Virus record (IMG/VR): IMGVR_UViG_2700989171_000008
DNA length: 4,588 nt
From: a virus
Lineage: Duplodnaviria; Heunggongvirae; Uroviricota; Caudoviricetes
Strand: one strand, 5' to 3'
The position numbers were made by a program, and so were the translations under genes. Below, piece by piece: positions 1,967 through 2,476 of the stretch; within the stretch, counting starts at the first letter, position 1, and each line of letters starts with the position of its first letter. The notes beneath the pieces are model-generated. The model did no database searches. It was not told where the DNA came from and saw nothing but the letters and a program-made list of their open reading frames with translations.

Positions 1967-1972
1967 GTCAGA

Positions 1973-2018
1973 GTCTTTCAGTCTGCGATGATGGGAAATC
2001 CCGGAGTGACTGAAAGAC
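1973..2018 (+). other. Perfect 11-bp inverted repeat (stem-loop) just 3' of the tRNA cluster
   Basis: GTCTTTCAGTC (1973-1983) pairs with GACTGAAAGAC (2008-2018); the 24-nt loop contains a nested GGG-AAAT-CCC mini-hairpin (1993-2002). No clear U-tract follows. Confidence 0.5.
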
Positions 2019-2038
2019 GTTTAAGTTATGAATGATCG

Positions 2039-2247
2039 CTTTTTTTTGCAAAATTGCTGTGCAGAAATACTAACCTTCGGGCAGGCGATCATTCATAAGC
2101 ACTCTGCTTTTATTCCGATTAACTGTGAGTGGTTTGTTGGATAGAGTGCTTTCCTTATTGTATATATCGTTTCGCCCGCTTTTGCGGTTTTTTCTTTTCA
2201 AATCCCTTTCATTTCTCAGTGTAAAACTACGCCATCCGTTATTTGCG
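2039..2247 (+). repeat. Direct repeat copy 1 (about 209 bp, noncoding) ending at a gap
   Basis: Aligns base for base with 2258-2465 at a constant offset of 218, apart from 5 substitutions (2083, 2084, 2128, 2158, 2187) and a T-run of 8 versus 7. Confidence 0.85.
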
Positions 2248-2257
2248 NNNNNNNNNN
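2248..2257. other. Assembly gap (N10) of unknown true length
   Basis: Ten N placed exactly between the two near-identical repeat copies. Confidence 0.8.
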
Positions 2258-2465
2258 CTTTTTTTGCAAAATTGCTGTGCAGAAATACTAACCTTCGGGC
2301 GTGCGATCATTCATAAGCACTCTGCTTTTATTCCGATTAACTGTGGGTGGTTTGTTGGATAGAGTGCTTTCCTTACTGTATATATCGTTTCGCCCGCTTT
2401 TGCGTTTTTTTCTTTTCAAATCCCTTTCATTTCTCAGTGTAAAACTACGCCATCCGTTATTTGCG
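2258..2465 (+). repeat. Direct repeat copy 2 (about 208 bp), immediately upstream of the holin RBS
   Basis: About 97.5% identical to 2039-2247; followed directly by GGAGG (2465-2469) and the holin ATG at 2477. Confidence 0.85.
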
Positions 2466-2476
2466 GAGGTGAGGCT

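Follow-up and report, generated by a model that had tools for sequence, protein, structure and literature searches.

In Shiga toxin (Stx) phages, the stx genes always lie between the late antiterminator gene Q and the lysis cassette, according to a review (PMC8065619). In 933W, the order is Q, pR', terminators, pT, the tRNA genes ileZ-argN-argO, a terminator, stxA2, stxB2, the nanS-p esterase gene, one open reading frame (ORF) and the holin gene S, and the distance from the last tRNA to S is 4458 bp. The DNA analyzed here is IMG/VR virus record IMGVR_UViG_2700989171_000008 (Caudoviricetes), a stretch of 4,588 nucleotides referred to as the window, and the feature in question is its interval between the last tRNA gene and the holin gene, at 1967-2476. 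A preliminary description of the window started from the premise that Stx phages carry their toxin genes between the late tRNAs and S, which broadly holds for 933W and in the review, and reported an interval of about 510 bp without such genes. The analysis indicates that the true interval is 292 bp, that it is free of toxin genes and that it encodes a conserved RNA element of three hairpins.

The window resembles 933W in its gene order, in the presence of a tRNA operon with a promoter of its own, a candidate one in the window, between Q and S (a terminator follows the last tRNA in 933W), and in its pT and ileZ, which are homologous to those of 933W. It differs from 933W in four respects. First, no stxA, stxB, nanS-p or other ORF is present between the tRNAs and the holin, and the interval is 292 bp long rather than 4458 bp. 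Secondly, the further tRNAs are Lys-Thr-Gly in the window and Arg-Arg in 933W. Third, the Q proteins belong to different families, PF06323 in the window and PF06530 in 933W. Lastly, the three-hairpin element is absent from 933W, whose late region gave no match to the covariance model of the element (R1, described below). In addition, no part of the window matches the 933W tRNA-to-S interval at the nucleotide level. The kinship with 933W is mosaic. Homology of the 292-bp spacer to stx-flanking DNA was considered and rejected: six phage records match the spacer and none of them is an Stx phage, and the matches named "Stx2a-converting" come from concatenated records, where they fall on a tRNA-Met/tRNA-Lys stretch that belongs to a neighboring non-Stx PPompW prophage.

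The window contains three runs of 10 N (1723-1732, 2248-2257 and 2766-2775) and is therefore a scaffold of four contigs, designated c1 to c4 (Table 1). A repeat finder located the same 207 nt on either side of the second run, at 2041-2247 and 2259-2465, with 98% identity and five mismatches (at 2083, 2084, 2128, 2158 and 2187). The closest complete genome used for mapping was that of Escherichia coli FDAARGOS_944, in whose locus c2 ends at position 3697 and c3 starts at position 3491, an overlap of 207 nt. The gap-free IMG/VR contig L130 is 100% identical to c1 and c2 (1-1722 and 1733-2247), and both 207-nt pieces of the window fall on one single 207-base stretch in it, as they do in FDAARGOS_944. 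Contig c2 runs unbroken from tRNA-Gly up to 11 nt short of the holin ATG, c3 spans from 74 nt past tRNA-Gly into the holin, and both are collinear with gap-free relatives. The two contigs together cover every base of the interval; thus, the gap closes with a negative length and hides nothing. The distance from tRNA-Gly to the holin is 292 bp in L130 and in both FDAARGOS_944 prophages that carry the module.

Distances were also taken from other relatives. With a 19-mer from the RNA element, 120 viral contigs were fetched, and the tRNA-to-holin distance was measurable in 75 of them. Of these, 69 had 290-294 bp and three about 750 bp, and single contigs had 364, 1239 and 3123 bp; a distance of 510 bp never occurred. 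The 3.1-kb interval, in L031, is made up of insertion sequence (IS) transposases and not of cargo, and the intervals of about 750 bp have a different holin and no convincing ORF. The coordinates in the preliminary description and its placing of the N-run at 2248-2257 were correct, while the length was not: the 510 bp are very probably the 292-bp interval written one and a half times, an artefact of assembly with no cargo in it. The further suggestion that cargo might lie in or beyond the gap is not supported, given the 207-nt overlap of the flanks, L130 and the 69 relatives.

The finding of no toxin-size ORF in 1967-2476 was borne out. The two longest ORFs there, of 63 and 59 aa, each extend across the N-run or the repeated copy; StxA2 and StxB2 of 933W have 319 and 89 aa, respectively. 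The proteins StxA2, StxB2 and NanS-p of 933W were compared by tblastn with the window, both FDAARGOS_944 prophage regions, L130 and E. coli ECMA0423, and gave only chance-level matches (E >= 0.08 overall, E >= 0.67 for StxA2 and StxB2). These results support a toxin-free lambdoid prophage with no other protein cargo in its tRNA-to-holin interval. The earlier wording, a toxin-free relative of Stx phages, is acceptable if "relative" is qualified, as the Q family is not that of 933W.

The five mismatches between the two 207-nt copies trace to two prophages. The left copy has the allele of prophage-1 type and matches L130 without a difference, and the right copy agrees at 100% with the spacer of FDAARGOS_944 prophage 2. 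The holin that follows the right copy is, at 100% identity, the prophage-1 allele, with 20 differences from the prophage-2 holin. A prophage-2 spacer is thus joined to a prophage-1 holin, so that c3 is a recombinant or else a chimera made by the assembly across a near-identical repeat. In FDAARGOS_944, prophage 1 is at 0.65 Mb and prophage 2 at 5.02 Mb, 4.4 Mb apart, and each has the four-tRNA cassette, the 292-bp spacer and a class II holin. The third N-run also joins contigs of two different prophages: the c4 stretch 2776-4530 has 99.3% identity to FDAARGOS_944 prophage 2 and does not correspond to prophage 1. The endolysin and Rz genes are therefore not the partners of the holin at 2477. 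At the first N-run, the ileZ-like tRNA has lost its 3' end, as 10 N stand in place of 19 real bases; for this reason ARAGORN gives only three tRNAs in the window, where relatives have four. The ends of the contigs fall in IS sequences. The best explanation of the window, with the mechanism proposed below included, is that of a draft scaffold from an IS-rich E. coli or Shigella genome with at least two related lambdoid prophages, to which we assign a probability of roughly 0.8. In the picture drawn here, a short-read assembly would have been broken at repeats and its contigs then strung together with N10 linkers. The N-runs in the window are joins of overlapping or unrelated contigs, lengths and gene linkage across them are not to be trusted, and the lysis genes to the right of 2776 are the property of another prophage.

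The interval had also been described as structured DNA, in agreement with our results. The single-copy interval folds with -92.5 kcal/mol (z = -3.55), and 0 of 100 shuffled sequences were as stable. RNAalifold recovered three hairpins (stem-loops SL1 to SL3) from 17 diverse homologues, in which 95.4% of cells were paired, compared with at most 48.5% when the partner was slid. Changes on both sides were found in 13 of 49 pairs, a count reached by 4 of 500 shuffles, and both the number of cells with such changes (41) and the covariation score (0.239) were reached by none of 500 shuffles; the homologues had been fetched by an exact 19-mer inside SL2, and that part of SL2 is invariant by construction in these counts. 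G-U pairs are frequent on the + strand, where the - strand would have A-C mismatches, and the structure therefore belongs to the transcript of the late-gene strand. These data show that the 292 bp are a conserved RNA module of the transcribed strand, composed of three covarying hairpins, a terminator-like site and the holin ribosome-binding site. The covariance model R1, built from 15 homologues, scores 195.5 bits on the window copy and 80.4 bits on the partial right-hand copy. One viral contig, L078, has a second, weak R1 match (30.3 bits, E 7e-7) at 2898-3010 on the - strand, some 500 nt away from its main copy; this second match could be a degenerate duplicate of the element.

The element apparently has neither annotation nor name. 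Rfam cmscan of the whole window (E <= 1) matched no family in 1967-2476, with AgvB, AsxR, STnc100, IsrK and Esr41 among the families covered, and matched elsewhere only three tRNAs, their antisense artefacts and weak isrK/isrJ. Sampled complete-genome records in RefSeq carry the spacer without annotation, a full-text literature search for the 14-mer core of the element returned no paper, and nothing specific was found in the literature on a conserved element between phage tRNAs and the holin. The element usually follows tRNA-Gly directly, although some loci are without SL1 and tRNA-Gly then abuts SL2. It stands behind three Q families (PF06323, PF06530 and DUF1133) and is followed, typically about 70 nt past the terminator, by the first lysis gene, which encodes one of at least four unrelated holin types. 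We tentatively propose, at somewhat less than even odds, that the hairpins of about 185 nt together with the terminator (1969-2198) represent an undescribed phage RNA family that covaries, is absent from Rfam 15, occurs at the tRNA/lysis junction of many lambdoid phages and is independent of Q and holin type. Its RNA might be a stable processed product or a cis-regulator gating the expression or timing of the lysis genes.

The site at 2176-2198 aligns with an annotated terminator of HK639, and relatives have stronger sites of a hairpin and a T-run at the same position, with stems of 6-11 bp and at least three unrelated sequences. In the single-copy interval it lies about 70 nt before the holin start. 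The element is placed where transcription from the tRNA promoter must be kept from the lysis genes. Our proposal for the 292 bp, for which we judge the chances evenly balanced, is that they form the 3' trailer of a tRNA operon that has a promoter of its own, together with its terminator, and that they keep the lysis genes protected until Q is active. Transcription of the tRNAs in the lysogen would start at pT, the structured trailer would give the tRNA precursor a defined and nuclease-resistant 3' end, and the terminator would halt Q-independent transcription before the lysis genes. After induction, RNA polymerase modified by Q would start from pR', pass tR' and the terminator, and express S, R and Rz.

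Several observations weigh against this function. First, the terminator-like stem is weak, measuring 4 bp in the left and 3 bp in the right copy, and a generic scan missed it. Secondly, the three hairpins are not followed by T-runs and so are not terminators themselves. Third, the SL2-SL3 core occurs in loci without a tRNA within 600 nt upstream (12 of 120). Lastly, whichever holin type follows, the position of this core is invariably right in front of the first lysis gene. A role as leader of the lysis cassette fits at least as well as one as trailer of the tRNAs.

A second possibility, which does not exclude the trailer function and which we regard as rather doubtful, is that the three hairpins and the terminator form an independent RNA, stable or regulatory, that is released from the tRNA or late transcript by processing and acts in trans on host or phage targets, which it would sponge or regulate. 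Precedents exist: two stable RNAs of unknown function are transcribed together with the tRNAs of the T4 cluster, and 3'ETS-leuZ of E. coli is a small RNA (sRNA) sponge cut from a tRNA precursor. The covariation shows selection on RNA structure, a terminator ends the element as in sRNA genes, and the element is modular, traveling with different Q families and holin types. The Pas sRNAs are directly adjacent to a holin/lysozyme operon, and known prophage sRNAs lie in the same Q-to-holin region (PMC4104026). However, no single-stranded conserved seed was identified, no Rfam family or Pas locus was matched, and a function in cis is suggested by the unvarying placement some 70 nt upstream of the first lysis gene.

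It is improbable that the conserved block is only a mosaic boundary at the DNA level, a recombination linker between the Q/tRNA and lysis modules in which the hairpins are incidental. The block does lie exactly at the junction of modules, with non-homologous Q genes upstream and non-homologous holins downstream. However, a mere patch of homology would not be expected to show compensatory double changes or G-U pairs specific to one strand, and the downstream terminator keeps its function while its sequence is replaced.

It is very improbable that the source genome truly has the 207-nt unit twice in tandem at a single locus, with the N-run standing for unsequenced DNA and possible cargo such as a toxin gene. 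The assembly-artefact explanation is limited in that the single copy is deduced from the sequences of relatives. In favor of duplication, the five differences mean that the copies are not one sequence read twice, the site takes insertions, as the 3.1 kb of IS elements in one relative illustrate, and the Q-to-S region is a known site of morons (PMC4104026). However, the five differences recur elsewhere, as described above, in L130 and in the second FDAARGOS_944 prophage, and none of the 75 measurable viral contigs has a duplicated interval. The spacer was found in 540 of 5426 complete E. coli genomes, in each case chromosomal and in 523 of them with at least 80% coverage, and it is the single-copy spacer that recurs in these 523. 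Gap-free contigs that share an IS junction with the window (see below) have 292 bp, and the neighboring joins of the scaffold are likewise non-contiguous. A lambdoid prophage without cargo between the tRNAs and the holin is common, as about 10% of complete E. coli genomes have exactly this spacer, and it has no implication for virulence.

Least probable of all is a small protein encoded by the 38-aa ORF 2028-2144 (+) or the 43-aa ORF 2070-2201 (-), since, although both ORFs exist and the latter is annotated as a hypothetical protein in vB_EcoS-689R5 and vB_EcoM-606R7, the + ORF varies among the 17 homologues in start (ATG in 4), frame and length (11-49 aa), the - ORF is broken in most of them, neither has a Pfam match, the sampled RefSeq genomes have no annotation here, and the substitutions track base pairing and not codons.

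Table 1. Features of the 4,588-nt window, with coordinates, strand and basis of assignment.
Feature	Position	Strand	Basis or remark
Contig c1	1-1722		
DUF968 (YdfU-like) gene, 3' part, running off the left window end	1-421	+	Pfam PF06147, E 1.3e-45; collinear with a 1059-nt gene of L001
rusA, Holliday-junction resolvase	422-787	+	Pfam PF05866, E 8.7e-16
Late antiterminator Q	784-1467	+	PF06323, E 3.6e-91; phrog_304
Candidate pR' (TTGCAA, 17 nt, TATATT), overlapping the end of Q	1456-1484	+	Consensus scan, 9/12; putative function
tR'-like hairpin followed by a T-run	1535-1560	+	Inverted repeat; + strand GCGGGTTTTTTG; putative function
Candidate tRNA-operon promoter pT (TTGCAA, 17 nt, TATTAT), ending 10 nt before the first tRNA	1628-1656	+	Consensus scan
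ileZ-like tRNA, anticodon CAT, 5' 57 nt only	1666-1722	+	Cut by the first N-run
Scaffold gap 1	1723-1732		10 N in place of 19 real bases; comparison with L130 and L001
Contig c2	1733-2247		
tRNA-Lys(ttt)	1734-1810	+	ARAGORN
tRNA-Thr(tgt)	1813-1888	+	ARAGORN
tRNA-Gly(tcc)	1892-1966	+	ARAGORN
SL1	~1968-2024	+	RNA fold
Conserved three-hairpin RNA element	1969-2152	+	Fold z = -3.55; covariation; R1 195.5 bits
SL2 (branched)	~2027-2097	+	RNA fold
SL3	~2098-2150	+	RNA fold
Weak intrinsic-terminator-like site (CCGC, TTTT, GCGG, then T6CT4)	2176-2198	+	Read from sequence
Scaffold gap 2	2248-2257		Join of two overlapping contig ends; true length about -207
Contig c3	2258-2765		
Redundant second copy of 2041-2247	2259-2465	+	Allele of a second, paralogous prophage; 98% to copy 1
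Holin Shine-Dalgarno region (GAGGTGAGGCT)	2466-2476	+	Read from sequence; conserved in relatives
Phage-21-type class II holin (pinholin family), 71 aa	2477-2692	+	PF04971 "phage P21 holin S", E 1.4e-35, full model
IS66-family element end	2709-2765	+	Annotated IS66 accessory proteins
Contig c4	2776-4588		
Second holin allele, last 41 codons	2776-2901	+	In c4
209-aa ORF, function unknown	2905-3534	+	No Pfam match; phrog_1085
Endolysin	3600-4133	+	Pfam/PHROGs, PF00959 lysozyme
Rz	4130-4534	+	Pfam/PHROGs, PF03245
Multi-copy IS terminus	4532-4588	+	Up to 43 places per E. coli genome, beside transposase genes

The other features of the window are those of a lambdoid late region on one strand, with a Q of PF06323, candidates for pR' and tR', a holin of PF04971, a lysozyme of PF00959 and an Rz of PF03245, although the endolysin and Rz in the scaffold come from the contig of another prophage and the native endolysin gene is interrupted. 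The holin is annotated as a class II holin family protein in relatives. It begins with MKSM, giving a Met1/Met4 dual start, and this together with the PF04971 match would make it a pinholin. The native endolysin gene, rrrD, begins at 2692 and is broken after 17 nt by the IS66-family end (GTAAGCGCCCC...). An identical rrrD::IS66 junction is found in three IMG/VR contigs and in the complete genomes of E. coli ECMA0423 and Shigella flexneri SFBU1023, none of which has the N-joins of the window. The junction is common to several genomes, and the prophage is therefore an inherited and degraded one. The 3' end of the holin gene occurs twice, at 2567-2692 and 2776-2901, with 87% identity. In the second prophage type, the 209-aa ORF lies between the holin and the endolysin and is the only candidate for a moron-like protein cargo in the window; in other relatives, its place is taken by a YdfR-family gene. 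At the right end, the IS terminus truncates the Rz spanin gene, and its TGA serves as the stop codon of ORF 4115-4534.

Upstream of the interval, the candidate pR' is placed as in lambdoid phages, and the tR'-like hairpin would stop a short pR' transcript in the absence of Q; a generic scan places this palindrome on the - strand. The pR'-to-tR' stretch (1487-1560) has sub-threshold Rfam matches to two sRNAs of Salmonella prophages or islands, isrK (22.5 bits, E 0.089) and isrJ (23 bits, E 0.47). These matches hint that the short late transcript made without Q could be an sRNA comparable to StxS of Stx phages. The candidate pT aligns with the annotated pT of 933W and would be a sigma-70-type promoter about 10 nt before the first tRNA. 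The CAT tRNA is identical to ileZ of 933W over the 57 nt present, and it is annotated as tRNA-Ile in L001 and as tRNA-Ile or tRNA-Met in relatives. Rfam tRNA matches over 1734-1966 score 44-72 bits. The second slot of the cassette varies among loci L009-L128, with Lys(ttt) in 58 and Arg(tct), Phe(aaa or gaa), a tta "stop" anticodon or one of several tRNAs with an irregular anticodon loop in others; no such variation is seen in the CAT tRNA, tRNA-Thr(tgt) or tRNA-Gly(tcc). Selection by host anticodon nucleases or codon-usage needs could account for the variation.

The element was compared with the known non-coding RNAs and regions of lambdoid prophages. Like AgvB, AsxR, EcOnc and the PasA/PasC/PasD sRNAs, it is non-coding and lies in the region from Q to the lysis genes, and those sRNAs end in an intrinsic terminator. 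It has no similarity to these sRNAs in sequence or model; the Rfam library, which gave no match, includes AgvB (RF02702) and AsxR (RF02703; accessions from the Pas preprint). Identity with a Pas sRNA was rejected, as BLAST with a word size of 7 against the three E2348/69 pas loci (L006-L008) gave only chance-level matches (E >= 0.017) and R1 was negative in them. Like the nmpC-essD region of DLP12, a cryptic lambdoid prophage, the interval is non-coding DNA directly upstream of a phage-21-type holin (essD). The RNA IpeX maps to this nmpC-essD intergenic region of E. coli K-12. An origin of the spacer from IpeX/DLP12 was also rejected: it has no similarity to the K-12 quuD-essD region, and R1 has no match in K-12 DLP12.

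HK639 has the three-hairpin element at 76% identity (R1 207.7 bits) in its Q-to-holin leader, followed by an annotated terminator. It differs in that only a remnant of the tRNA-Gly 3' end and a tRNA-Asn lie upstream, and in that its holin pair is a different one, preceded by a further 500 bp or so in which two additional terminators are annotated.

The closest counterparts of the window are non-Stx lambdoid E. coli phages and prophages. The phages phi467, vB_EcoS-689R5, PhiR47_1 and vB_EcoM-606R7 and the FDAARGOS_944 prophages have the same spacer, with 97.9-100% identity (99.0% in phi467), and the same holin. Their tRNA cassette is also essentially the same, with the CAT tRNA called Met by ARAGORN and in some records; in part of the records one of the four tRNAs is not listed, and the second slot holds Arg in FDAARGOS_944 prophage 2. 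Between the window and these relatives there is no difference of substance, the window being a fragmented and IS-disrupted copy. Its absence of cargo is the already known biology of a common non-Stx lambdoid prophage type.

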